Positions 41,867-64,000 of a DNA stretch of 64,000 nt are shown here, in pieces. Made by a program: the position numbers and the translations under genes. Origin of the DNA: Bacilli bacterium (lineage in GTDB: Bacteria; Bacillota_I; Bacilli_A; RFN20; CAG-826). The stretch is from the NCBI GenBank assembly GCA_031556235.1, contig JAVBTH010000001.1, forward strand, positions 140,982 through 204,981, written 5' to 3'. The first letter of the stretch is position 1. Each line of letters starts with the position of its first letter. Under the pieces are notes generated by a model, which made no database searches, was not told the DNA's origin, and worked only from the letters and a program-made list of their open reading frames with translations.

Positions 41867-43147
41867 CTATTTTTTCACTAGATAATCGCGAATATAATTA
41901 CCAGCAAACTCCGCGCCGACGCCTAATTCTTTTTCAATTTCTAGTAATCGATTATATTTACATGTTCTTTCACTTCTCGCTGGGGCACCCGTCTTAATAA
42001 AAAGAGAATTTACCGCGACTGACAGATCAGCGATGAAACTGTCTTCTGAGTCACCTGATCTATGTGAAATAATCGTAAATATGTGCGATTTTTGCGCTAA
42101 TTCGATTGTTTCTAGAGTTTCAGTCAATGTCCCAATTTGATTTGGTTTAATGATAAGTGCATTAGCTAATTTATTCTTAATTCCCTTTTTAAGTAATTCT
42201 TTGTTTGTGACGAAAAGGTCATCTCCTACTAAAATGGTTTTATGCATGAGACGCTCACTTAATTCCTTCCAATAAGGATCATCTTCCATTAATCCATCTT
42301 CAATTGATAAAACTGGGAATTTGTTTGTTAAATATTCATAAAAATCAATCATCCCTGTCGCGGTCTTTTCTTTTCCTTCAAATAAATAAATTTTTCGTTT
42401 TTCATCATAGAACGAACTTGCTGCGACGTCAAAACTAATCATAAAGTCTTTTCCAAGTTTAAATGGCGTAGTTTTGATTGTTTCTTGTAGGAACATGAGT
42501 GCTTCTTCTGTCGTATCAAAAGGAAGAACAAATCCTCCTTCATCACCTAGAGAAGTCGAATATCCTTGTTTTGTGATATTTGCTTTTAAGGCTTTATATA
42601 TCACGACTCCCATTTCGATGGCTTTAGAAAAGCTTTTAGCTCCAACCGGAACAAGCATAATTTCTTGCACATCAATTTTATTGTTAGCGTGTTTCCCGCC
42701 ATTTAAGACATTAAACATTGGCATTGGTAGTGTGTGGGCATGTAATCCGCCTAAATGCCGATAAAGTGGAGCCTTGCAGACGTTTGCGCTAAGTCTTGCG
42801 ATAGCTAATGAACAACCAAGCATTGTGTTTCCACCTAAATTCTCTTTAGATTTAGTTCCATCAAGTTTGATTAAAGTATCATCGATTAGTCTTTGATCCA
42901 TAAAATCAAGATCCTTAATCGCGGTGAATATTTTACCTTCCACCAGTTTGACAGCTTTCATCATGCCTTTGCCATTAACACGTTTTTCATCGTTATCGGT
43001 TAGTTCGACAGCTTCATAGATTCCTGTTGAGGCCCCTTTTGGCACAATCGCAGTGCCACATGTTTCTTCATAGATTGCCTCGACCTTAATTGTATAGTCA
43101 CTTCTAGAATCAAGTACTTCTAAACCTTTTAATTTTGTTAATTTCAT
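41867..43147 (-). CDS. eno: Enolase
   Basis: LEVLDSRSD...TGIYEA and a canonical C-terminal enolase domain; start trimmed to MKLTKL behind GGTGGGTGAT. Confidence 0.9.
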   Translation of the reverse strand: MKLTKLKGLEVLDSRSDYTIKVEAIYEETCGTAIVPKGASTGIYEAVELTDNDEKRVNGKGMMKAVKLVEGKIFTAIKDLDFMDQRLIDDTLIKLDGTKSKENLGGNTMLGCSLAIARLSANVCKAPLYRHLGGLHAHTLPMPMFNVLNGGKHANNKIDVQEIMLVPVGAKSFSKAIEMGVVIYKALKANITKQGYSTSLGDEGGFVLPFDTTEEALMFLQETIKTTPFKLGKDFMISFDVAASSFYDEKRKIYLFEGKEKTATGMIDFYEYLTNKFPVLSIEDGLMEDDPYWKELSERLMHKTILVGDDLFVTNKELLKKGIKNKLANALIIKPNQIGTLTETLETIELAQKSHIFTIISHRSGDSEDSFIADLSVAVNSLFIKTGAPARSERTCKYNRLLEIEKELGVGAEFAGNYIRDYLVKK

Positions 43148-43228
43148 TTTATCACCCACCATATTATGGTCAGCAAACTTCAAAAATAGACTATAAAAAA
43201 ACTCATGTCGCTAAACATGAGTTAAAAA

Positions 43229-51746: not shown

Positions 51747-52277
51747 TTATTTTAACTTTTCCAAAATATCCTCTTCTATTTTTTTTATATAATCGGACAT
51801 ATATATCCAATTCGGTTTTGCATTTTCATCAACTGGCAGTTTTATTTTAATTGTTTTCATTTGTTTATATCTAAATTGTTTTTTAAAACTAAAATTCGAG
51901 CAAATAGTATTGTGTATAACCGTGCATAAAAATAATCCTACATTTTTTCCATAGTTACCTATTACTGGATAAACGTTATCATCACAGACAAAACTATAAT
52001 CGTGATAAAAACAATTTCCAAACATATCTATTGTCACGCAATTGCTATATATTCTATTTCTTTCGGGAGGTGTAATATATTCTGATATGCCATTATTAAA
52101 CTGACCTGCCGTTATTAAAGGAACATCTCCAATTTTTCTATCGCTTTTCTTTAACCTAGCACCATGTTCACAATTTGGAAACAAATCAGTAAAATCAAAA
52201 TCCATCCAATCAAATGTTTCTAAAATTGTTTCTTTTTTAATTTTGCAAATAAAATTATTAATAAACGGAAAATTCAT
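51747..52277 (-). CDS. hsdS: Half-size Type I restriction-modification specificity subunit (single target-recognition domain HsdS)
   Basis: GDVPLITAGQFNNGI TRD pattern and a C-terminal conserved region ...IKIKLP...; start overlaps the stop of the upstream MTase gene. Confidence 0.6.
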   Translation of the reverse strand: MNFPFINNFICKIKKETILETFDWMDFDFTDLFPNCEHGARLKKSDRKIGDVPLITAGQFNNGISEYITPPERNRIYSNCVTIDMFGNCFYHDYSFVCDDNVYPVIGNYGKNVGLFLCTVIHNTICSNFSFKKQFRYKQMKTIKIKLPVDENAKPNWIYMSDYIKKIEEDILEKLK

Positions 52278-54025
52278 TATTTTACCTCCTTATTTTTCAA
52301 AGCGAATATATACCAGTCATAGTCTTTAATCGCCTGAATTTCTTTTTTAATACTATCCATTTTTATTTTAGCTTCTTCATTTTCAAATAAAACTCTTTCG
52401 AGCACTGTCTTGTAAAATTTTTCTTCACTAAGCACATTTTTTTCAACTTCCACATCATATTCTAATGTTCTTGAAATTTGTTTTGTTTCATGATCTAAAT
52501 TATTTGTGATTATATTAGTCCAATATGAAAGAAGATTATCCTTCCCGTCATCAATCCAGCGATCATTTATATCTTGTTTTCCAGCATTCTTTACTGTTAC
52601 TAATTCATCTTCTTTTATCCAATACTTGATTATGTGTTTATCATTATGTGGAGCATCAGTTTGGAAGATAAATATTGACGTTGTAACTCCTGCTATACCT
52701 TGCCATGTTTTTTCAGGCATTTTAATGATTTTTAATAAAGTATGTTTATTAAAAATGGATTTGACTATTTTTTCTGATTTTGTACATAGCGTTCTATCTG
52801 GTAGAATAAAAGCACAAAGAGAATCTTTTGAAACATTATCTAAAACATTTTTAACAATTTTAATGCCTGTTTGGTTTTCAAAAGGTGGATTCATGAGTAC
52901 TTTATTAATTCCCAGAGACTTTATCCATTCACCTACCTTATTACTTGTTGAATCTCCTTGTATAATATTTGTCTTTCCATCTTTATGCATTAGCATATTT
53001 ACGCATGATAATACATACAATTCTCTTGCCCATTCAATTCCGTAAAGACTATTTACAATTTCATTTTTTCTATCGGGTCTTTCTTTCAGCATTTTGCTCA
53101 TTGATTTAGTTAAAAAAGTACCAGACCCGCAAGCAGCATCCAAAATTCTGGAATTACTGTTTACACTTATAATTTTATACATTAAATCAGTCCAAATTTC
53201 AGGAGTAAATACTTGACCATGCTCTCTTTTCCCAGCATATCTTCTAAATTCATTAAAGAAAATTGCCATCGCATCTTTCCCATCCCATGAATATGAATTA
53301 ATCCATTCACTTATTTCATAAATATCATTATATATAGATTCTACACTTTTTTGTCCATCTTCATTCAAAGAGATTTTTTCAAATTCTTCAGACAGTAAAA
53401 ACAATTTACTATCCTTATGCATTGATCCGGTAGGGATTCTTTCCTTTATAATTTTAGCAATTGATTTTTTCATATCTTCAAAAGAAGTTGTTGGTACAGC
53501 TAAATCTTCATCTATTGCTATTCTAATACCTACTAGTGCCAATCCAGTAAATTTCATTCTAGATATTAAATCTGCGAGACCTAAACTATGTAATTTTTTA
53601 TTAATAGATTGAACTTTTAAATATATTGATTCTTTTGGAACAGGAACTTCAAATAATCCTTCATAATATGACATGGGTTTCAACAATTTTTCTGATGGAT
53701 GAGTTAAAGAAATGCATTCCTCTGTTTCAATATCATAAAGTATTCCAACTATTTTTCTTGTTTTCATTGCTTTTTCTAATTTTATGTAATTCTCTAATTG
53801 CTCTATATAAAATTCCAATTTTTTATTTTGTTTTTTTTCTATTAATACAGCAACACCATTATGGTAAAATCTCCTATCCAAAAACTTGTTTAACTTATCT
53901 CCTTCATTTTTTTCCAAAATTTTAGTTATTTGCTTTTTTGAAAAATACTTTTGGTATGAATATTCATTGTTTTCAATATTTGAAGTTAAAAATTCTTCAC
54001 CTATTATTTTTTCGAAATCTCTCAT
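52277..54025 (-). CDS. hsdM: N6-adenine DNA methyltransferase (HsdM-like, gamma-class)
   Basis: Motif X GQVFTPEIW, motif I ILDAACGSGTFL, motif IV NPPF. Confidence 0.8.
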   Translation of the reverse strand: MRDFEKIIGEEFLTSNIENNEYSYQKYFSKKQITKILEKNEGDKLNKFLDRRFYHNGVAVLIEKKQNKKLEFYIEQLENYIKLEKAMKTRKIVGILYDIETEECISLTHPSEKLLKPMSYYEGLFEVPVPKESIYLKVQSINKKLHSLGLADLISRMKFTGLALVGIRIAIDEDLAVPTTSFEDMKKSIAKIIKERIPTGSMHKDSKLFLLSEEFEKISLNEDGQKSVESIYNDIYEISEWINSYSWDGKDAMAIFFNEFRRYAGKREHGQVFTPEIWTDLMYKIISVNSNSRILDAACGSGTFLTKSMSKMLKERPDRKNEIVNSLYGIEWARELYVLSCVNMLMHKDGKTNIIQGDSTSNKVGEWIKSLGINKVLMNPPFENQTGIKIVKNVLDNVSKDSLCAFILPDRTLCTKSEKIVKSIFNKHTLLKIIKMPEKTWQGIAGVTTSIFIFQTDAPHNDKHIIKYWIKEDELVTVKNAGKQDINDRWIDDGKDNLLSYWTNIITNNLDHETKQISRTLEYDVEVEKNVLSEEKFYKTVLERVLFENEEAKIKMDSIKKEIQAIKDYDWYIFALKNKEVK

Positions 54026-54388
54026 AAATACTGCTCCTTAATGCATTTTATTATTTACATGCTGCTTTATATTATTTTATTTGCTTATTCAGAATAGGCA
54101 ATTATTTTATGCTGCCACTTCATAATACAGTTGCTATCAAATTGTTGAATACTGATTTTCTACAATAAACAGCTATGTGACAATACTTTTATCTACTGTA
54201 AAGCAATACGACTGTCTCAACGTGTGCGGAGTTATAGAAATTGCTTTAAAAAATATTGCTGAGACTATGCAAGAGATATAGCATTTAAGTAATTAATTGA
54301 ACTCAAAAATAAAAAATTACTATATAATAAAAAAAATCAACTTTGAGAAATTGATTCTTTTTGGTAAAATATTAATGGTGATTAGATT

Positions 54389-55009
54389 ATGATAACAGTA
54401 AGAAAAATACAAAATGTTATAAAAGAAAATGGCAGAATCTCGACTCTTGCAGATATTTATTCTACATATGAAAAATTATATCCAGAAGATTTAATTGGAA
54501 AGAAAGCTTGGACTTCTTTGATTAGAAATTTAATATATTTTCATGCCGAAGAATGTGATAAACATAACAATAAATATCCTATTCTTTTTTATTCAGTAAA
54601 TGGAAAGGGCTCTGGGGTTTGGGGGCTATGTGATGTTCCAAATAGCGAGGTTAATTTACCAAGTATATCTTCACTAAATGATATGGTATTTCCTGAAGGA
54701 GCATTGTATGAATATCGTCATATGAAAAAAGAAAGAAATAGCAAATTAATTCATGAAGCAAAAAAACGTTTTTTACAACAACATGGAAAAATATATTGTC
54801 AGATATGTGGTTTTAATTTTTATGAAAAATATGGAGTTATTGGCAAAGATTTTATTGAAGCTCATCACATAATTCCGATTTCAGATGTAGATGCTGAATA
54901 TGATGCAAAAGTAGAAGATATTATTTTAGTATGTTCAAATTGCCATAGCATGCTTCATATTAAGCGTCCTTGGCTTACTGCAGATGAATTGAAAAAATTA
55001 TTAAAATAG
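54389..55009 (+). CDS. HNH endonuclease with an N-terminal winged-helix-like domain
   Basis: CQICG...EAHHIIP...VCSNCHSMLH His-Me finger with two CxxC pairs. Confidence 0.75.
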   Translation: MITVRKIQNVIKENGRISTLADIYSTYEKLYPEDLIGKKAWTSLIRNLIYFHAEECDKHNNKYPILFYSVNGKGSGVWGLCDVPNSEVNLPSISSLNDMVFPEGALYEYRHMKKERNSKLIHEAKKRFLQQHGKIYCQICGFNFYEKYGVIGKDFIEAHHIIPISDVDAEYDAKVEDIILVCSNCHSMLHIKRPWLTADELKKLLK

Positions 55010-55025
55010 AAGCACTATCAAATAA

Positions 55026-55056
55026 AAAACGACTTCAGTAAATAGTCGTTTTAAAG
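55026..55056. terminator. Bidirectional terminator (aacgact/agtcgtt stem flanked by A/T runs)
   Basis: Between the convergent HNH gene and the 395-aa gene. Confidence 0.6.
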
Positions 55057-55068
55057 TTTATATGCTTT

Positions 55069-56256
55069 TTAATCGTAAATTCCTAAATTTAATCTTTTTT
55101 CTAATATTTCAAATATTTCTCTTGTGGAACTTAAGTATTTTGGCCTTGCATCCAAATACCTATTTACTCCTTCTTCATCCATGCTTTTAATTGTATTTGA
55201 TAAAAATGAGTGAACAACATTTTCTATTGATGAAAAAGTTAAATATAATTGATAAATACAATCTGCATGAAAAGCTCCTCTATTATAAGTCGCATGAACT
55301 GCAGACGAATGGATAACCTTACTAGCATCTTTATAAAAATTATAGCGATGACTCTGATTTGCTAACTTAGATAAGGTTTCTTTAAAATTTAAATTTCTAT
55401 TCTCATAATCTTTTATTCTTAAAATCCAACCTAAATTTATAAAAGCTTTTTTATTATTCATTTTATAATATTCCATCTCAGTTTTTAAGGATTCAGATAG
55501 TTCCTTATTCTCTTCATTATCATCATAGTCTAGTGGCAAGTATTTTAAATGATCAACATATGCTTTACTTAAAATATTATCATAATTATTTAATAAAATT
55601 ATAGTGCATTCTAATTCATGACAAGTTCTCCAAAGGCTATAAGCTTCACTATCATATCCATTTGATAGCAAGTCTGCAATTGCATTAATTGTACATAATG
55701 ATTTTACAAACAAATTAAGTAATGTGGTTATTTTTTCATCATTAGTTTTTAATTTCGGATAAATTTCCAAAATGCAATGATTAATAAACCTTGTATACAT
55801 TTTTAAATTTCCTATTTCAGGCGAATATTTATTAGTAAATGACAACGGATTTATCTGAAGATGCTCATTAAATATTAACTTTGCAGTAACTTCTTCAACT
55901 ATTTTATTTTGATAATTTATATCATCTTGTAGAGATGCTCTTGCACTGTCTTCTAGATGGGATGTTCTAAAATAATGTTCATATGCAATATATGGAATCA
56001 TGTCTTTGAATTGCATATATTCATGAAGAGGAACATTTAAATTTCTTTTTGCCATTTCTTGAAAATAAAAACCATTAACCATTCCTAAAATCTTTTTAAC
56101 AAAATTCTTCTTGATTTTATCCCTATTATTTATTTTGGACCAAATCGAATCAAATTCCATTTCCAAAAAAGATTGCATTTGCTTATTCATTAATTCAAGT
56201 GCTTGTTTTTGACTATTACTAAGCATAACTTTATTATTTATAGTTACAGAATTCAA
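55069..56256 (-). CDS. Hypothetical protein (395 aa from a TTG start with a GGGGTGA SD; alternative ATG at 56226)
   Basis: ORF track; predicted all-alpha; no motif recognised. Confidence 0.5.
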   Translation of the reverse strand: MNSVTINNKVMLSNSQKQALELMNKQMQSFLEMEFDSIWSKINNRDKIKKNFVKKILGMVNGFYFQEMAKRNLNVPLHEYMQFKDMIPYIAYEHYFRTSHLEDSARASLQDDINYQNKIVEEVTAKLIFNEHLQINPLSFTNKYSPEIGNLKMYTRFINHCILEIYPKLKTNDEKITTLLNLFVKSLCTINAIADLLSNGYDSEAYSLWRTCHELECTIILLNNYDNILSKAYVDHLKYLPLDYDDNEENKELSESLKTEMEYYKMNNKKAFINLGWILRIKDYENRNLNFKETLSKLANQSHRYNFYKDASKVIHSSAVHATYNRGAFHADCIYQLYLTFSSIENVVHSFLSNTIKSMDEEGVNRYLDARPKYLSSTREIFEILEKRLNLGIYD

Positions 56257-56350
56257 TTTATCACCCCATAATTATAAATATTATATCATTTAAAGTTGTT
56301 TTTTCAAAATGAAAACCACTTAATCTTCATATGTGGTCTTGCTTATATTT

Positions 56351-57205
56351 CTACACTTTCAATTGATTTTTATATTTTTCACCGAAATTATTAATCAAAT
56401 CCTTTGCCCAGTTCTCAATATTAATATTTTCTTCAATAACAAATTCTTGACCTCTACATGCCGATTTAAAGTGATCATCTTTCCAATTATCCGCTGTATG
56501 GTACGTAATAGTTAAATTTTTAAAAAAATCTGGTAAATCCCATTTAGTTCTAGTCATCCCTTTTTTAGTTAAATTCAATTTTTCATTATATGAAAACATT
56601 CCATAACCTTTAATTCCTTCATTAAATGAACATTTTTCTCTAGCGATATATATGCAATTATTATCATTATACTTTTTATAATCAGCATGAGGATGCAGTT
56701 TCAGCCAGTTTGGTATTTCATCCTTTTTTGGATGAATAATTTTCCCAATTTCTAAGTATCCAAATATAATGTGCTTATCTTCATTATTTTTGAATTTATT
56801 CTTATTGTTTACAATTTCGACCTCCCTAAACCAGCCAAAAAATAAAAATAGATCTCCTTCTTTAATTTTCTCTTTTTCCAGATGTCCTTGTGCACTATCT
56901 ACTTGTCCAAAACTCCCTAGCCAATCATTATCCCTTTCAACTGAATTAAAAGTAATATCTGGATCTAAATGACAAGTTATATTATCATCTAGTTCTCGCT
57001 TTAACTTATTTAGCCAAACATGATCATTTAGCTGGTACATTATATCTATTAATCTTTTCCCGCTGGATGTTTTTAAATTTGAATAACATCTTTTATCATC
57101 TAAACTTGGTATTGGAAAAGTAACAAGTTCGCCATCTGGCAATATAACACTAGGGTATCCACCATATCCAGAATCAAACCCTTTTCTACTTAAAATAACC
57201 TTCAT
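56351..57205 (-). CDS. Hypothetical protein (284 aa), N-terminus MKVILSRKGFDSGYGG; possible PUA/ASCH-like beta-barrel segment
   Basis: ORF track; AAAGGAA SD. Confidence 0.5.
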   Translation of the reverse strand: MKVILSRKGFDSGYGGYPSVILPDGELVTFPIPSLDDKRCYSNLKTSSGKRLIDIMYQLNDHVWLNKLKRELDDNITCHLDPDITFNSVERDNDWLGSFGQVDSAQGHLEKEKIKEGDLFLFFGWFREVEIVNNKNKFKNNEDKHIIFGYLEIGKIIHPKKDEIPNWLKLHPHADYKKYNDNNCIYIAREKCSFNEGIKGYGMFSYNEKLNLTKKGMTRTKWDLPDFFKNLTITYHTADNWKDDHFKSACRGQEFVIEENINIENWAKDLINNFGEKYKNQLKV

Positions 57206-57236
57206 TAATAATCATTCCTTTTTAAAACTTTTATAA

Positions 57237-57518
57237 TTATTTCTTATTTTCAACAAATATTTTATAAGCTCTTAATGCACTAATTACAGAATTATGGCTT
57301 TTTCTGCCATTGGCTTCTTTAATTCCTCCGACACCATAGTCGATTACGAATCTATTAATTTGTGATGCTAGTGCTTCCCAAGTAAGTCTTTCATCAGCAC
57401 ATACTCCTGCTATTCTTTTACAATAATCATAAACAGTGCTAGGATTACCGCTAGGCGTTAGCACTTTATATCCTTTATTAATAAGAAATTGTCTAAATTG
57501 CTCTTCTAAATAATTCAT
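57237..57518 (-). CDS. Hypothetical small protein (93 aa), first gene of a 3-gene cassette
   Basis: ORF track; AGGAG SD 10 nt upstream. Confidence 0.5.
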   Translation of the reverse strand: MNYLEEQFRQFLINKGYKVLTPSGNPSTVYDYCKRIAGVCADERLTWEALASQINRFVIDYGVGGIKEANGRKSHNSVISALRAYKIFVENKK

Positions 57519-57580: not shown

Positions 57581-57618
57581 AAAAAAGCCACTATCCCCCG
57601 ATTAAGGAAGTAGTGGCT
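57581..57618 (-). terminator. Intrinsic terminator ending the phage late/lysis transcript (agccacta/tagtggct stem with a U7 run on the minus strand)
   Basis: 8-bp stem, 17-nt loop, and TTTTTTT on the minus strand immediately after the stop of the 57624..58112 gene. Confidence 0.65.
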
Positions 57619-57623
57619 TACTT

Positions 57624-58112
57624 TTATTTTGAATTCAAATATTCATCTATTAATTTTTCGGATTCCGATAAAGTATTTTTACCTTCCATTTTATTGCTGA
57701 AAGATACATATTCATCAATAATTGAATTTATCTTACTTTCATTTAATTCTACAAAATCTACTGCTTTAGAAATTGATCCAGTGGTATTAGTAATCCATTC
57801 CGATAAGCGAAGGATTACTTCTTTTTTCTTTTCATCACCACTTAGATACTGCTCTCCTTTTTCTTTAGCGATAGCATTCTTTTCTTCTACAATAAGAATG
57901 AACTCTTTTATTGCTTTTTGGACATTGTCATCAAAAATAATGTCTTTTGCTTTTATTACCAAATCAGCAACATTCGAAGAAGTCTTTTTTAAATCATCTT
58001 TAACTTCTTTTATAACATCAGCAAAACTTTTATTCTTACCTAATTTACTAGTTACATATAAAGCTAAAACTGCTAATAAAGCAATTAATAACATAATCTC
58101 AAGTGTTGTCAT
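57624..58112 (-). CDS. Phage membrane protein (N-terminal TM plus coiled coil; XhlA/holin-associated-like)
   Basis: MTTLEIMLLIALLAVLALYV TM segment, then a charged helical region; position at the end of the late operon. Confidence 0.4.
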   Translation of the reverse strand: MTTLEIMLLIALLAVLALYVTSKLGKNKSFADVIKEVKDDLKKTSSNVADLVIKAKDIIFDDNVQKAIKEFILIVEEKNAIAKEKGEQYLSGDEKKKEVILRLSEWITNTTGSISKAVDFVELNESKINSIIDEYVSFSNKMEGKNTLSESEKLIDEYLNSK

Positions 58113-58416
58113 TTTTCTTTCCTCCTAATTTTTCATAAAGATTGACATGTGAATCCTCGAGTCTTGAAACACGATGTTCCAAAACATTAACATCTTTTTT
58201 TATTGATTTGATATCCTGTGAATGGATTTCCAGTAGATTCAGCATCTTACCATTTTGCTTTTCTATTTTAGAAAGGTTTTGCAAGACTTCTGCATTATTA
58301 CTATCATTCTTTTTTTGTTGTGATTTGAACTGCTTAATAGTTGTTAATACAACTACAACAACCATAACAATTAAATAGATAATATTATCTAATTTAAAAA
58401 GTTGATCTATGCTCAT
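58099..58416 (-). CDS. Phage membrane protein (TM plus coiled coil; XhlA-like)
   Basis: IIYLIVMVVVVVLTT TM segment plus a coiled-coil region; overlaps its neighbours. Confidence 0.4.
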   Translation of the reverse strand: MSIDQLFKLDNIIYLIVMVVVVVLTTIKQFKSQQKKNDSNNAEVLQNLSKIEKQNGKMLNLLEIHSQDIKSIKKDVNVLEHRVSRLEDSHVNLYEKLGGKKNDNT

Positions 58417-59066
58417 TTGTTCAATTCCTCCTTAAATTTTCTTATGTATTCTAAAGACTCTTTTATTTCTGCGTGGAGTCTTACTCCAGTTTCACTATTC
58501 CAATTATGCTTATAACTTAATAATTTAGTTCGCCATGGTTCTGCTATATCAAGAGTCAGCTTTCCAGTTTCTTTATAATTTTCAATGACTCCTCTTAACC
58601 TAAAGACATGATACATTTTTTTAGTTGGCTTGGCTGATTCATTATAGTGGTAATAATAATACTGCAGATTCTTATCTAAGAATTCTTTATATCTATCAAT
58701 CAATTTGATATTTATAAATTCTTTATATTCACTTTCATATGCTGGATTTAAATAAATTAATGTTTCATCAATTGATAAAGCATCATCAATAAAAATCTTA
58801 TTATAAATAGGTAAGTCGCTACTCATATCTTGTCTTGTTAAGAATTTATCCTCGCCATAAATAAAATAATCAATCCCATCTATTTCTGTATGTATAAAAC
58901 CTTTTAATCCATTTACAAATACATTAACATCAATGTCACTGTATTCATCTTCATAAATTCCAAACGCTAAAGAACCACCAAAATACATAAACATAATATC
59001 CTTGTCTTTTAATAGTCCTTTTGCATAAGTAATAATTTTTTCTTTATCAATATTCTTTGGTACCAT
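58413..59066 (-). CDS. Nucleotidyltransferase (NTP_transf_2 / pol-beta superfamily; ANT(4')/Lnu-like architecture)
   Basis: FGGSLAFGIYEDEYSDIDVNVFV matches the G[GS]...DxD minimal-NTase signature; compare KNTase GVYGSLGRQTDGPYSDIEMMCVM. Confidence 0.6.
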   Translation of the reverse strand: MVPKNIDKEKIITYAKGLLKDKDIMFMYFGGSLAFGIYEDEYSDIDVNVFVNGLKGFIHTEIDGIDYFIYGEDKFLTRQDMSSDLPIYNKIFIDDALSIDETLIYLNPAYESEYKEFINIKLIDRYKEFLDKNLQYYYYHYNESAKPTKKMYHVFRLRGVIENYKETGKLTLDIAEPWRTKLLSYKHNWNSETGVRLHAEIKESLEYIRKFKEELNK

Positions 59067-59385
59067 CTTTCTTTTCCTCCTTATTTTCTAGATTCAACGA
59101 TTCCATATCATCTTCTGCATCTTCAAAATTTATTGCATTTTCTTTTAACCACCAATAAGCTGCTTCAATCACATTTGAATTTAAAAAAAGTGGAAAATCC
59201 TCTTCAGGAACTTCCACATCGACCATGTCCAATGGTTCACAGTTTTGCCTTCTAGTTTCTTTTGAAACGAATGAAGCAATACATATAATTACTTTTTTCA
59301 CTAAATAATTAACTGATATTGCAACGACTCGATGGTAACTCGCACTACAACCATAACTTGAATTAATTTCTTTGATTATTGCCAT
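59047..59385 (-). CDS. Hypothetical protein with an acidic C-terminal tail (112 aa); its 3' end overlaps the NTase start by 20 nt
   Basis: ORF track. Confidence 0.45.
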   Translation of the reverse strand: MAIIKEINSSYGCSASYHRVVAISVNYLVKKVIICIASFVSKETRRQNCEPLDMVDVEVPEEDFPLFLNSNVIEAAYWWLKENAINFEDAEDDMESLNLENKEEKKDGTKEY

Positions 59386-59393
59386 TTATTAAC

Positions 59394-60071
59394 CTACTTT
59401 CTTCTTGACCGATAAACTGAAATACTAAATGACAAACTTCCAATATCTAATCCTGGATTAATCAATATTCCACCAAGTGAAGCATCAATGACATGAGCAA
59501 ACATACAGTTGGTTATAGGTGTATTACTTTGATCAGATGCACCAGTTATACTTGTCCCATGAACCATCCACGTATATGTCGAGCTTATACTACTTTCAAA
59601 TGTTGGAGATATTTCAAAATCAATAATCTTGGTTGTTGCATACGAAGCTGACGTCGAATTCGTATAAGCATCATAGATATAAAAAGAAGTGGTGTTTTTT
59701 CCACTTGCTTTCGATATTGAAGTATAATTATCACCTAAGTACATGCAAGTGAATGAACCACTCATTGCAGATGAGCCATTATAAGTGTAATAATTAAAAA
59801 CCGTATTTGAAGTATCTGTTCCTGATGTAGCTGCTATAATATGAATTTTATATACATAGTTCCTATCGAAGTTATAGTTTAATTTATAGTTGCTAACTGC
59901 TCCTTCATAACTAAAAACAAGTTCATAGTCTCCACCACCAATTTTGACCATTGATGAGGCACTTCTTATATAAAGTTCATTAGCACTATAGTTAAATGCC
60001 ATCTCACCAATATTAGTAACATTTCCAGTTGACGGAGTTGAAGTTCCTCTTTTTAATTGGATAACTGCCAC
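59394..60071 (-). CDS. Phage tail-fibre-like protein (N-terminus MAVIQLKRGT..., paralogous to the neighbouring gene)
   Basis: Shared N-terminal motif with the 60071..60754 gene; Ser/Thr/Asn-rich. Confidence 0.55.
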   Translation of the reverse strand: MAVIQLKRGTSTPSTGNVTNIGEMAFNYSANELYIRSASSMVKIGGGDYELVFSYEGAVSNYKLNYNFDRNYVYKIHIIAATSGTDTSNTVFNYYTYNGSSAMSGSFTCMYLGDNYTSISKASGKNTTSFYIYDAYTNSTSASYATTKIIDFEISPTFESSISSTYTWMVHGTSITGASDQSNTPITNCMFAHVIDASLGGILINPGLDIGSLSFSISVYRSRRK

Positions 60072-60754
60072 TAGAACGTTCCTCCATCAATTATTGAAGA
60101 TGGTGTTAAAACTTTAGACTTATCAATTCCATATGAGTAAATTCTTCTATTTGGTGTATATCTTGTATCAAGTGATGAATAAAGGATTAATCCATTTGTG
60201 ATTACGCTTGAATTAAATGTTGTTAGAGTCGCTTCATAACTTGCCCCATTATTAACATTGATTCCAGTATTCAATACATTTGATAATGTTGTGATTTGAG
60301 TAGTAGATAAATGCTTTGAAGTATTGTTCGCATGATCATTAAATGTAGTTGTTGATACTCCGCTTAAATCTGTTAAAGTAACAGTAACTGCTCCAGTTTT
60401 TCCATTAACTGAACTAACAGCATTTGGAACAACTGAACTTGGTAATTTTCCACTCGAATCTAGCACTGGTATATTTCCATTACTTGTTCCGGTGTTTTTA
60501 TAAGCTGCTGTTCCTAATCCAAGGTTAGTAATTTTATTATCAATCCGATTATCTACAACTGATGTTGACGGAATTTCCATATAATCATTTGAGGATAAAG
60601 GAGTACTGCTACTACCAGTTTTATCAGCTTTAGCAATATAAAGATTACCGCCATTAAAATCAACCTGAGGCTCACCTGCTTTTACTGTTCCGCTATTTCC
60701 GGTTAATGGACCAGTTCCGGCAGTAGTTCTTCTTTTAAATTGAATCGTTGCCAT
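60071..60754 (-). CDS. Phage tail-fibre protein (N-terminus MATIQFKRRT...; GNIPVLDSSGKLPSSVVP motif)
   Basis: Conserved tail-fibre N-terminal motifs. Confidence 0.6.
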   Translation of the reverse strand: MATIQFKRRTTAGTGPLTGNSGTVKAGEPQVDFNGGNLYIAKADKTGSSSTPLSSNDYMEIPSTSVVDNRIDNKITNLGLGTAAYKNTGTSNGNIPVLDSSGKLPSSVVPNAVSSVNGKTGAVTVTLTDLSGVSTTTFNDHANNTSKHLSTTQITTLSNVLNTGINVNNGASYEATLTTFNSSVITNGLILYSSLDTRYTPNRRIYSYGIDKSKVLTPSSIIDGGTF

Positions 60755-60768
60755 GTTTTGTTTCCTTT

Positions 60769-61536
60769 CTAATAATATAAATAAATCGTTGAAATGGTAT
60801 GTAGTGAGCTTCCAGTTGTAATATACAAGAAACCAGCATTTGTATAAATCGCCAATGAATATGCCAATGTTCCAACTCCATATGAGATGCTCTTTTGAGA
60901 AGATGAAGTTTTAACAAGTGATCCTGGAATCGTTACTATATAAGTTCCAGTTTGAAATGTAATTAATGCATCTGCTAGAGTAAGTCCTCCATAATCAAAA
61001 CAATAAGTATTTCCGGAATAACTCGTTCTAAAAATTGCTTTCCTTTTTGTCTCAGCCAAGATTTCATTTTTTGTAGTTGTTAGATTAGATTTGTTGGTAC
61101 GAATATACGATGGAACAAAACTTGTATTTGCCTGAAGTGATGTTGTTGATTTCGTGTATGCAAAAATTGGTAGTTGATAGATACCATCTTCATTTAATAA
61201 ATTTGTTTGAATTAATGAAGGATAAGTACCTGTTGCTTCTAGTTTTATTAAATCCACTTTATTTGTTATCGTATTTATTTCAATTACTATATAGCCTGAT
61301 TTATTTGAATCTAACGCTATATTAATAGTTGTTCCTTCTTCTACAAAAACTCTTCTTCCATAGACCGAAACATAGCCACTTCTAAAAGTAACATTACCGT
61401 TACTGATACTGTAGTATAAATTGTTTGCTAGTCCACTAATAATTCCATTTTCATAATTTGTTAAAAATGCATTAACAAATGCATCATGCTTGGCGGTATT
61501 CATTGCACCGTCAAAAGTTAACTTTACTAGTCCCAT
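60769..61536 (-). CDS. Phage tail/baseplate structural protein (hypothetical)
   Basis: Synteny within the tail module; beta-rich composition. Confidence 0.45.
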   Translation of the reverse strand: MGLVKLTFDGAMNTAKHDAFVNAFLTNYENGIISGLANNLYYSISNGNVTFRSGYVSVYGRRVFVEEGTTINIALDSNKSGYIVIEINTITNKVDLIKLEATGTYPSLIQTNLLNEDGIYQLPIFAYTKSTTSLQANTSFVPSYIRTNKSNLTTTKNEILAETKRKAIFRTSYSGNTYCFDYGGLTLADALITFQTGTYIVTIPGSLVKTSSSQKSISYGVGTLAYSLAIYTNAGFLYITTGSSLHTISTIYLYY

Positions 61537-62660
61537 TAAAAGACACCTCCATCCAGGTCTGTAATTCCACCTTTTGATACTGCTATATTTCCAATGTTTG
61601 AATTAACATTTTTTGATAATATCTTTATTTTTTCTGTCAGCTTTATTCTATATTCACCAAGCGTAAGCTCTGCTTCGTTGAAGCTATTCTTGAACTTGAT
61701 TTGTGTAACTACCGAGTCATATACTTTTTGCTTTGCATAAAATTCTATATAATCTCCTAAGAACAAATTTTCAAGCGGATTAATTAATCCATTGCTTGCA
61801 TGAATCATAAAAGTTATATTGTGATCTAAACTTGAACCTATCATTTCACTTCTTGCCTTTGTACTAAGCGTAGAATACTCATTATCAGAATAATAAAAAG
61901 ATGATAACGATACATTCTTGTATCTATTACCTTCGTTTTTGTTTTCAGTTATATCTCCATTTGTAAGAAGATAATACGTTTTAGTCGCTTTATAAGTCTT
62001 ATTTTCTGCTTTTGGATAATAAACAACTTTATTAATCATTTGCTCATCACTGTCATTTATTACTAAATCTCTTATTGCCTTAAAATCACTTTTTAACTTA
62101 ATACCTTTATCAGTACTATCGATAATAATTACTATTTTTGAGAACTTTCCATTTTTAAATTCGACCTTGTAATGTAGATTAATTCCATAAGTTTTTGTGA
62201 TAAGCTCTATCAAATCTGTTATCTTCATTAGATTATCATCATCAAAAGTTAAATTACCTTGTTTTGATACTTTTAAATCAATTTGCAAATAGCTAAGATT
62301 TTGATATAGATCATTATTATTAATAAAATGCGTTGCAATTGTAGTACTTAGAAAATTAGCAACATCACCACTAAAACTTTTTATTGGCACTTTAACATTA
62401 AATAATTCTTTGAAATCTTTACATTGAACTTTTGTTTTTCCTTTATCAGCTAACTCAATTGTTTCAACTAATCCAACATAAGAATAGTTTTTTTCTTTTA
62501 ATATAGTAATATCTCCAATCGTTATTTGCATATTTTCTTTATTAACAACGAATGATGATTTTTGAGGTATTACCAAATCAACTATTAACTCGAAATCATT
62601 ATCAACAAATCCGTAATCTTTATAATCTAAACTATTTTTATCTAAAAATATTAATTGCAT
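61536..62660 (-). CDS. Phage tail-associated (Tal-like) minor structural protein
   Basis: Position immediately downstream of the Dit-like gene. Confidence 0.45.
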   Translation of the reverse strand: MQLIFLDKNSLDYKDYGFVDNDFELIVDLVIPQKSSFVVNKENMQITIGDITILKEKNYSYVGLVETIELADKGKTKVQCKDFKELFNVKVPIKSFSGDVANFLSTTIATHFINNNDLYQNLSYLQIDLKVSKQGNLTFDDDNLMKITDLIELITKTYGINLHYKVEFKNGKFSKIVIIIDSTDKGIKLKSDFKAIRDLVINDSDEQMINKVVYYPKAENKTYKATKTYYLLTNGDITENKNEGNRYKNVSLSSFYYSDNEYSTLSTKARSEMIGSSLDHNITFMIHASNGLINPLENLFLGDYIEFYAKQKVYDSVVTQIKFKNSFNEAELTLGEYRIKLTEKIKILSKNVNSNIGNIAVSKGGITDLDGGVF

Positions 62661-62661
62661 A

Positions 62662-63486
62662 TTAATTACCTATATACCCTTCGATAAATGTTAACTTACA
62701 AGTTGTCGATGCACTAACTCCTGGTCGAAACTCAATCTCATATGTTCCTGGATCAATAAAAATAAAATTATCACAAGTAAAATCTTGATATTGATATACA
62801 TCTACTTCCTCTCCAGTTTTATAAAATAAAGTCATCTTTTGATTTGTAACTTCTGAATTAACTACTAACTTGCAATCATTACTTTTAAGATACATTCTCA
62901 TCATCGACACTACTTCATCATTCTTCTTAATCAAAACTTCCGGATTATCAAAAGCTCCATTAATCTCAATAATTAGTGGTGCCTTAACAAAACCATTATT
63001 TGTTACTTTGATTTTCCCTTCAAAAGATATTGAATAAGTATATGGATAGGTAAAAGGATAAATCTTTGCACTATTATTAACATCAACATCAATTTCAACT
63101 ACAACATCAACTCGCCATAAGCCAAGTCGTTCAATAACCACTTCGCATTGTAGCACACCACTAATTAATTCAGTTTTGCTAATAGATTTAAAATTAACAT
63201 TACAGTACTTCTTTGAATTAGAATGATAATGAAGTTCTAATGATTTACTACCTTTCAAGTATTCTAGGAAAGTGTTATAGCCTTTATACTGATTTAAAAA
63301 GATTAATGATCCACCAATCTCTGCAATGGGATTGTCTTCTTTAATTAACAAGTAATCATCATCAAATTTTAAGTAAGTATTTTCTTTTATAATTCCAAGT
63401 CCAGTTGGCGAAGCATAAAGCGTTGAAGTTCGATAGTCAAAATGATATTCAATACCTAAATCATTTACTAAATATAGATGTCTCAT
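62662..63486 (-). CDS. Phage distal tail protein (Dit-like)
   Basis: Position directly after the tape-measure gene. Confidence 0.45.
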   Translation of the reverse strand: MRHLYLVNDLGIEYHFDYRTSTLYASPTGLGIIKENTYLKFDDDYLLIKEDNPIAEIGGSLIFLNQYKGYNTFLEYLKGSKSLELHYHSNSKKYCNVNFKSISKTELISGVLQCEVVIERLGLWRVDVVVEIDVDVNNSAKIYPFTYPYTYSISFEGKIKVTNNGFVKAPLIIEINGAFDNPEVLIKKNDEVVSMMRMYLKSNDCKLVVNSEVTNQKMTLFYKTGEEVDVYQYQDFTCDNFIFIDPGTYEIEFRPGVSASTTCKLTFIEGYIGN

Positions 63487-64000
63487 TATAGATAATTTCC
63501 TCCTAACGCTTTATTAATCGAATCAATATCAAATTCACTAGATGAAGTATTTACCGTTACATTGTTTGTTGTATTTTGACTATTATTATTGGTTGTAGTT
63601 GATTTCTTATTGTTTGTTATTCCTAGAGTACCTCCGAGCCAATTGCCAAAGTCTCCTAGTCCTTTTCCAATCTTGCCAAAGAAATCTCCTACTTTTCCAA
63701 ATACTTTTGACACTGCATTGATAATCTTTTCTAGTAGCCAAAGAATCGGTTCTAGAATCTTAAATAGTAATTCTAATATTGGTAAAAGAATAGCACTTAT
63801 TACCTGAGCTACTATTTCAATTAATGGAGCGATGAGTTCTAGGAACCCTGCTAACATTTCAAATTGTCCTAATAAAGGAGCTAGTAACGCTTCAATTAAT
63901 GGCATCAGCAGATCTATAATTCTAACAACCAAATTTATAATCACTTCAAATATTGGCATTAAGGCATCCAATAAAACTTGAACGATATCCATAATAGGTT
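63486..64000 (-). CDS. Phage tape-measure protein, C-terminal part (ORF runs off the window edge)
   Basis: Helical heptad-like LxxLL repeats and a Gly-rich segment; the frame is still open at position 64000. Confidence 0.5.
   Translation of the reverse strand, partial: PIMDIVQVLLDALMPIFEVIINLVVRIIDLLMPLIEALLAPLLGQFEMLAGFLELIAPLIEIVAQVISAILLPILELLFKILEPILWLLEKIINAVSKVFGKVGDFFGKIGKGLGDFGNWLGGTLGITNNKKSTTTNNNSQNTTNNVTVNTSSSEFDIDSINKALGGNYL

Follow-up and report, generated by a model that had tools for sequence, protein, structure and literature searches.

A predicted Pol-beta-superfamily nucleotidyltransferase at the head of a putative holin block in prophages of gut Mollicutes-like bacteria

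RESULTS

A nucleotidyltransferase gene near the end of a prophage late operon

We analyzed a 64,000-nucleotide (nt) stretch of a Bacilli bacterium genome (contig JAVBTH010000001.1 of assembly GCA_031556235.1; hereafter the window), in which the late operon of a prophage includes a gene for a 217-amino-acid (aa) protein bearing the signature of a nucleotidyltransferase (NTase). This gene overlaps an upstream open reading frame (ORF) for a 112-aa protein and is followed by two genes for small proteins with a predicted membrane helix, here called c3 and c4 (Table 1). An initial annotation had described the NTase and 112-aa ORFs, the 20 nt that they share (59047-59066), the NTase motif MYFGGSLAFGIYEDEYSDIDVNVFV (MYFGGSLAFG...SDIDVNVFV), and the acidic stretch FEDAEDDMESLNLENKEEKKDGTKEY in which the 112-aa protein ends, and the ORF list bears out each of these. 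It had not recognized the two downstream membrane proteins as the constant partners of the NTase. The NTase is a fixed core gene of one temperate siphophage-like prophage lineage, and there it is followed by c3 and c4 in the same order in each sufficiently long locus examined.

The genes of the window are tightly packed, with the start of c3 overlapping the NTase stop by 4 nt and c4, the final gene of the late operon, overlapping c3 by 14 nt. On our reading of the sequence, a strong AAGGAGGA-type Shine-Dalgarno motif stands ahead of the NTase, c3, and c4 starts, and a consensus scan of the four-gene minus-strand block found neither a sigma-70-like promoter nor a terminator inside it. The NTase and 112-aa genes are real rather than chance ORFs, because the NTase homologues are under purifying selection (pairwise ratio of nonsynonymous to synonymous substitution rates, 0.02-0.13) and the homologues of the 112-aa protein show 26 invariant columns when aligned.

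The NTase represents a distinct family with an intact active site

The motif, the conservation pattern, and the predicted fold all place the 217-aa protein in the Pol-beta superfamily of NTases, where it represents a distinct and uncharacterized family. In an alignment of 51 NTase homologues, from which all of our conservation counts are drawn, G31, D44, and D46 do not vary, and position 66 holds an acidic residue, Asp or Glu, throughout. The catalytic acidic triad of what had been described as a minimal-motif NTase is thus intact. The N-terminal NTase domain carries GGS30-32, D44, D46, D66, and D94, while the C-terminal helical domain carries K149, Y152, H153, R156, and K186. S32 (50/51), S43, D94, K149, Y152 (49/51), H153, R156, and K186 are each kept in at least 47 of the 51 sequences. 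The C-terminal half of the protein consequently contributes a conserved basic and aromatic patch beside the Pol-beta signature, with the nearly invariant Y152 and R156 on one helix face. The active site is intact, and the enzyme is apparently active and catalytically competent.

Searches for relatives recovered 24 homologues in an index of 5.8 billion proteins, and an exhaustive profile search brought the family to 90 representatives at 50% clustering. When family members were scanned singly, NTP_transf_2 (PF01909) was matched by 35 of the 51 and Polbeta (PF18765) by 29, with two members, P0085 and P0078, exceeding the PF01909 cutoff. The window NTase alone matched nothing in NCBIfam (E ≤ 1), PADLOC (E ≤ 1), or PHROGs, and in Pfam neither it nor any of the 51 members matched AbiEii (PF08843); the proposal that it might belong to a CD-NTase, AbiEii, or other defense family thus found no match in PADLOC or Pfam. 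No tblastn match to the window NTase or to P0036 was found among 50,697 deposited phage genomes, and a megablast search with 20 kb of the window gave no match.

An AlphaFold2 model of the NTase (predicted local distance difference test score, pLDDT, 90.8) consists of an NTase domain followed by a helical domain, and Foldseek matched it to many solved NTases in the PDB with a probability of 1.00, the matches over the full length being to two-domain NTases. The top match was Hailong HalB (9dbj, 9dbh, and 9dbi; E = 7e-6; template modeling score, TM, 0.43-0.51), and second in the ranking was ANT(4') at E = 1.3e-5 (structures 6p01, 6un8, and 1kny; E from 1e-5 to 4e-4; TM 0.38-0.45). LinB, ANT(9), OAS, and MNT ranked after these two, with the LinB/Lnu structure 3jyy at E = 6e-4 and TM 0.36, and CdnC had a fold probability of 0.18. 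The two-domain layout like that of ANT(4') and LinB to which the initial annotation had drawn attention was therefore recovered at the level of the fold. Sequence profile searches of the PDB returned motif-level matches to MNT and CdnD only, namely, to the motif region of MntA (5yep; E = 0.0066 over ~45 residues) and of CdnD (E = 0.076), apart from NOS matches that were spurious; HalB gave no sequence-level match even at E ≤ 10. The model thus suggests a fold class that is common to kanamycin NTase, HalB, and RlaP, with a likeness that holds at fold level only.

Pol-beta NTases are a known kind of enzyme, and the new part here is the family and its position at the head of the holin block. Within the reach of our searches, both the family and its fixed, translationally coupled place are undescribed, and we found no literature linking an NTase, XhlA, a holin, and a prophage together. 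Together, the proteins would make up a small, previously undefined family of Pol-beta NTases that is confined to a little-studied lineage of phages from gut Mollicutes-like bacteria.

Some distant members of the family have other surroundings. P0088 (L029 6001-7680) is a 559-aa protein in which the NTase is fused to a radical SAM domain, and its cluster also contains genes for a MazG-like/AAA kinase, an APH-like kinase, an AbiEii-like NTase, a methylase-HAD protein, an S-adenosylmethionine (SAM) synthetase, and an ABC-2 transporter. P0085 lies in a similar cluster, which also encodes an ABC-2 transporter and a radical SAM enzyme. Such clusters (loci L029 and L032) look like a nucleotide or natural-product tailoring pathway.

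The overlapping 112-aa protein is part of the tail-fiber module

The overlap between the two ORFs had suggested an MNT/HEPN-like or other toxin-antitoxin-like pair. The 112-aa protein, which matches phrog_5084 (E = 1.3e-11), does not have the features of such a partner: it has no Rx4-6H motif, its single His being followed directly by Arg, and its AlphaFold2 model (pLDDT 75) shows a small alpha/beta domain that runs into an acidic, disordered tail, and for this model no PDB fold match, including no HEPN fold, was found. Nor is the 112-aa gene always paired with the NTase, a point that the initial annotation had left to be checked. Homologues lie directly after large tail-fiber genes in Clostridioides difficile phage phiCDKH01 and Bacillus phage BCD7, with no adjacent NTase, and the NTase loci L031, L049, L050, and apparently L048 are without both the 112-aa gene and the two fiber genes that precede it. 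Given that the gene is present in NTase-less phages and missing from some NTase loci, we consider the 112-aa protein a tail-fiber-associated accessory protein that belongs to the tail-fiber module, and not a HEPN-like or obligate partner of the NTase.

A homologue of the 112-aa protein is also present in an Izemoplasmatales metagenome-assembled genome (MAG). In the neighboring fiber module, the N-terminal ~60 residues of the 225-aa fiber-like protein of the window correspond to a stand-alone 62-aa ORF in gut-lineage loci (L006 9496-9684), and the fiber gene is therefore truncated or modular there.

The downstream proteins are lysis-type in the gut lineage, and no endolysin was found beside them

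We examined c3 and c4 together with their positional homologues. Each protein has a single N-terminal transmembrane helix followed by a Lys-rich segment, and the positive-inside rule predicts that most of c3 and most of c4 face the cytoplasm. XhlA (PF10779) is matched by five of eight positional c3 homologues (best E, 1e-6) and Holin_LLH (PF09682) by five of eight positional c4 homologues (best E, 6e-4), and c3 has weak matches in PHROGs to phrog_1625 and to holin. Homologues of the gut-lineage c4 bear a holin annotation in the Faecalibacterium phages FP_Lagaffe and FP_Brigit, and the homologue in Roseburia phage Shimadzu is annotated as hypothetical. At the level of sequence profiles, c3 and c4 of the gut lineage are thus lysis-type proteins. 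A 171-aa ORF antisense to c4 (57613-58128, plus strand) is low in complexity and rich in Ser, Phe, and Ile, and we regard it as a shadow ORF.

In FP_Lagaffe and Shimadzu, related phages of walled hosts that we inspected, an amidase endolysin gene lies immediately upstream of the c4 homologue. No endolysin gene adjoined c3 and c4 in any of the NTase-lineage loci that we inspected, and a Pfam scan of 23 further ORFs on a representative contig of 39 kb detected no family of peptidoglycan hydrolases, although, with this contig beginning within a DNA polymerase gene and its final 3.7 kb left unread, the absence of an endolysin is not proven. The NTase had been placed between tail-fiber and lysis genes in a late operon; the position stands, but the lysis genes in question comprise just an XhlA-like protein and an LL-H-type holin. 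The block resembles both PBSX-type XhlA-holin-endolysin cassettes and the endolysin plus LL-H-type holin of Faecalibacterium and Roseburia phages, in that an XhlA-like protein and an LL-H-type holin end the late operon. It differs from them in being without a recognizable endolysin and in having an NTase translationally coupled at its head.

The NTase-c3-c4 order is conserved across divergent loci

ORFs were clustered around the NTase in 26 loci, followed by more distant representatives and metagenome loci. We found that the NTase, c3, and c4 adjoin one another wherever a locus extends far enough to reveal their order, and in most of these loci they overlap by 4-14 nt. Across the loci, c3 is 98-105 aa long, with a transmembrane helix and a coiled coil, and c4 is 125-162 aa long, with an N-terminal transmembrane helix. 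The order persists at 24-30% NTase identity, also in loci without the upstream fiber and 112-aa genes, and a scan of metagenomes added eight more loci with the same gene order. The late operon stops at c4, and what lies past it is variable cargo, serine recombinases, or host DNA.

Most of the genome loci with a named host come from "uncultured Mollicutes," Acholeplasmatales, or Mycoplasmatota MAGs; a Mobilisporobacter MAG and a Cloacimonadota MAG are also among the hosts. We take the hosts of the lineage to be gut "Mollicutes"/RF39-like Bacilli, Acholeplasmatales, and some Clostridia. Gut lineages of this kind mix peptidoglycan-positive and peptidoglycan-deficient species (PMC10868615).

DISCUSSION

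A possible role in an endolysin-less lysis module

Our favored reading, which we hold tentatively and with a probability of roughly 0.4, is that the NTase serves as an enzymatic part of, or a regulator of, a lysis module without an endolysin and that it transfers a nucleoside monophosphate (NMP) or deoxynucleoside monophosphate (dNMP) to a hydroxyl acceptor. The NTase is the fixed first gene of a translationally coupled block, which continues with the XhlA-like c3 and the LL-H-type holin c4 and ends the late operon, and under this model it would be made late and coexpressed with both. As a protein without a signal sequence, it would presumably stay in the cytoplasm, on the same side of the membrane as the bulk of c3 and c4, and it is the late coexpression and this shared location that lead us to favor a role in the lysis module. 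The acceptor would most probably be a macromolecule, either a nucleic-acid 3'-OH or a protein tyrosine, and the transfer of NMP or dNMP may tune or assist holin-mediated lysis, which would make the NTase a lysis regulator or cofactor. If an enzyme is hard-wired ahead of a holin block, it would add a new kind of component to phage lysis, notably where phages seem to lyse their hosts with no endolysin.

Several observations weigh against this interpretation. The link to lysis consists only of conserved adjacency within one related phage lineage, and since the whole tail-lysis block is syntenic, inheritance alone may explain the adjacency of the NTase. The c3 and c4 copies of the window match neither XhlA nor Holin_LLH and were assigned via positional homologues and architecture; the window c3 is only 13-19% identical to the gut-lineage copies. 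In addition, an Anaeroplasmataceae phage has a small transmembrane protein and the same type of holin with neither an endolysin nor an NTase, which shows that this holin type can do without the NTase. Distant members of the family occur outside phages, in gene clusters that also encode radical SAM enzymes, kinases, a SAM synthetase, and ABC-2 transporters, which implies that the acceptor of the family need not be a macromolecule.

The pattern of divergence also counts against it. The NTase diverges faster than its neighbors (identity of 0.37-0.39 versus 0.52-0.62), and the NTases of loci L006 (9968-10657) and L008 (9956-10645) are 66% identical while their flanking proteins, a 93-aa counterpart of the 112-aa protein and the 105-aa c3, are 100% identical. 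By eye, most of the difference between these two NTases falls in the N-terminal ~130 residues, which make up the catalytic domain, with the C-terminal ~100 residues nearly identical. The NTase thus appears to be mosaic, its N-terminal part having been swapped, and a swap of this kind next to an identical c3 argues against tight coevolution of the two proteins.

A more specific version of the lysis proposal seems to us fairly improbable. The NTase could act from the cytoplasm as the controlling part of a lysis switch that needs no endolysin, timing the membrane lesion through a nucleotide polymer or by directly nucleotidylylating c3 and c4 in their cytoplasmic domains. The timing of holins is normally explained by antiholins and membrane potential. 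If the NTase did act as such a switch, the Hailong-like logic of an NTase that gates a membrane effector would be at work inside a phage lysis cassette, and this would hint at shared ancestry between such defense systems and phage lysis modules.

Alternative functions of the NTase

Alternatively, the protein may be an RlaP-like NTase that acts on RNA 3' ends, adding one or a few NMPs to the damaged or cleaved ends of tRNA or other RNA or blocking these ends, in the service of counterdefense or of taking over the host. That it lies ahead of the lysis genes would then be incidental. Although unlikely in our estimation, this is the alternative that survives best. RlaP enzymes, of which T4 NrdC.11 is a member, have a similar layout of an NTase domain and a helical domain and tail the 3'-OH ends of RNA (PMC12776372). 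Among full-length Pfam families, only RlaP (PF10127) recurs across our sequences, with weak matches in 18 of the 51 members (best E, 1e-4) and a match in P0088 that covers residues 23-194. Furthermore, phrog_388, labeled nucleotidyltransferase, is matched by 31 of the 51, and among viral models, the best fold matches (TM 0.55-0.63) are to NTases from jumbo phages and giant viruses. However, every RlaP match lies below the curated cutoff (13.8-18.3 bits versus 23 when viewed singly), the Pfam scan gave none for the window NTase itself, and an hhalign comparison with T4 NrdC.11 (63% probability) was limited to 22 columns of the motif. RlaP genes typically accompany RNA ligases, whereas the window NTase sits in a lysis block, and we found no RNA ligase, polynucleotide kinase, or RNA repair family among the 23 ORFs of the representative contig or in the neighborhoods inspected. 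The late position at the head of the lysis block is also at odds with this alternative, given that counterdefense genes are usually early.

The top match among solved structures raises the potential that the NTase is a template-independent, tyrosine-primed oligonucleotide synthase like HalB, which might gate the adjacent membrane proteins or replenish oligo-dA and so silence a host Hailong system; we consider this improbable. HalB is an antiphage NTase that is encoded beside the membrane effector HalA and keeps it closed (PMC13434031). The two proteins are of similar size (216-222 aa for HalB), both are encoded beside membrane protein genes, and the near-invariance of Y152 and R156 would suit a tyrosine-primed reaction. 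The TM scores are modest, though, and no better than those for ANT(4'), and there is no detectable similarity in sequence. HalB makes oligo-dA that holds the channel HalA closed and belongs to a host defense operon, whereas the window NTase is a phage late gene whose neighbors are XhlA-like and LL-H-holin-like proteins of an ordinary lysis type. Profiles of c3 and c4 matched neither HalA nor any channel among PDB sequences, and the PADLOC search that returned no match used a 2023 release, in which the presence of a Hailong model was not checked.

We think it quite improbable that the NTase is a soluble lysis effector that replaces the endolysin, that is, a cytoplasmic enzyme that nucleotidylylates an envelope precursor, such as the hydroxyl of a lipid-linked sugar, and works as an enzymatic "amurin." Directly upstream of the holin-type genes, the NTase does occupy the place that the endolysin has in FP_Lagaffe and Shimadzu, and no endolysin was recognized in the lineage. 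In addition, ANT(4') and LinB, which resemble it in fold, modify sugar hydroxyls. Many of the hosts are Mollicutes-like, however, and may be without peptidoglycan (PMC10868615), and wall-less hosts would explain the absence of an endolysin more simply, without any replacement. The Anaeroplasmataceae phage manages with holin genes alone.

The initial annotation had also suggested an antibiotic-resistance gene carried as a moron, and we regard an aminoglycoside or lincosamide NTase of this kind as very improbable. The likeness to ANT(4')-Ia (kanamycin NTase), LinB/Lnu(B), and ANT(9) comprises the two-domain fold and, for the first two, the G-S...D-x-D/E motif, but it is generic, as HalB and phage NTases share it. 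The NCBIfam and antimicrobial resistance models, ANT and Lnu included, gave no match at E ≤ 1. A weak Pfam match to ANT(6) (PF04439, Adenyl_transf; E = 0.034) reached 13.7 bits against a cutoff of 22 and was confined to the window protein, the only one of the 51 members to touch the model, and hhalign against ANT(4')-Ia of pUB110 gave 4% probability over 42 columns of the motif region. Unlike sporadic cargo, the gene is a conserved phage core gene, fixed and translationally coupled in the late operon across deep divergence. These results remove a false alarm, in that this is most probably not a phage-borne aminoglycoside or lincosamide resistance gene.

Finally, an MNT-type antitoxin or toxin paired with the 112-aa protein is hardly credible: the two genes overlap and the protein shares an N-terminal helix and the GS...SDxD motif region with MntA of MntA-HepT, but at 217 aa it has a second conserved domain, a helical one of ~110 aa, that an MNT protein of ~130 aa (100-140 aa) does not, it has no HEPN partner, and each gene occurs without the other.

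Genes surrounding the block

The features of the window that bear on the late operon are collected in Table 1. PhageMin_Tail and Dit_N matches in Pfam were found in loci syntenic with the tail module of the window.

Table 1. Positions of the NTase gene and neighboring features in the window (aa, amino acids; ORF, open reading frame)
Feature	Coordinates	Strand	Basis or remark
217-aa NTase ORF	58413-59066	minus	ATG start; ORF list
112-aa ORF, acidic C terminus	59047-59385	minus	ATG start; ORF list
c3, 105-aa protein with N-terminal transmembrane helix and coiled coil, XhlA-like	58099-58416	minus	Position and architecture
c4, 162-aa protein with N-terminal transmembrane helix and helical C-terminal domain, LL-H-type holin-like	57624-58112	minus	Position and architecture
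Upstream tail module, whole	59394-63992	minus	ORFs and syntenic loci
Tape-measure C terminus	63486-63992	minus	Upstream tail module
Dit	62662-63486	minus	PF16774 in syntenic loci
374-aa protein	61536-62660	minus	Upstream tail module
255-aa protein	60769-61536	minus	Upstream tail module
Fiber-like protein, 227 aa	60071-60754	minus	Upstream tail module
Fiber-like protein, 225 aa	59394-60071	minus	Upstream tail module
Variable cargo beyond late operon	51747-57518		Context only, outside the module

The cargo region beyond the late operon differs between loci. In the window, the stretch that follows the operon (54389-57518) contains a 93-aa ORF, a full-length Nmad3 protein (56351-57205; PF18754, E = 6e-67), a DUF5677 protein (55069-56256), and an HNH endonuclease (54389-55009, plus strand). 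This cargo is only partly common with that of the closest relative, L001, which has an ADP-ribosyl exotoxin-like gene instead. By the prophage end, the window has type I restriction-modification genes (51747-54025) that encode a 582-aa N6 methylase and a short, 176-aa specificity subunit, and a complete M-S-R type I system stands at the same relative position in L001.

Beyond the prophage end, two tandem proteins of 274 and 294 aa with C-terminal NTP_transf_2/Polbeta domains are encoded in L049 (9684-11401) and downstream in L003 and L012, where they adjoin a very large RHS/YD-repeat toxin gene. Elsewhere in the window, the enolase (41867-43183) is unusually divergent, with a best nonself match of 73% identity, a next match of 59%, and the bulk at ~52%, which suggests a fast-evolving or poorly sampled host lineage. 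The representative phage contig (L040 1-9000) encodes a family A DNA polymerase, a D5-like primase, an SNF2 helicase, a SAM synthetase, an N6/N4 DNA methylase, and a VRR-NUC nuclease.

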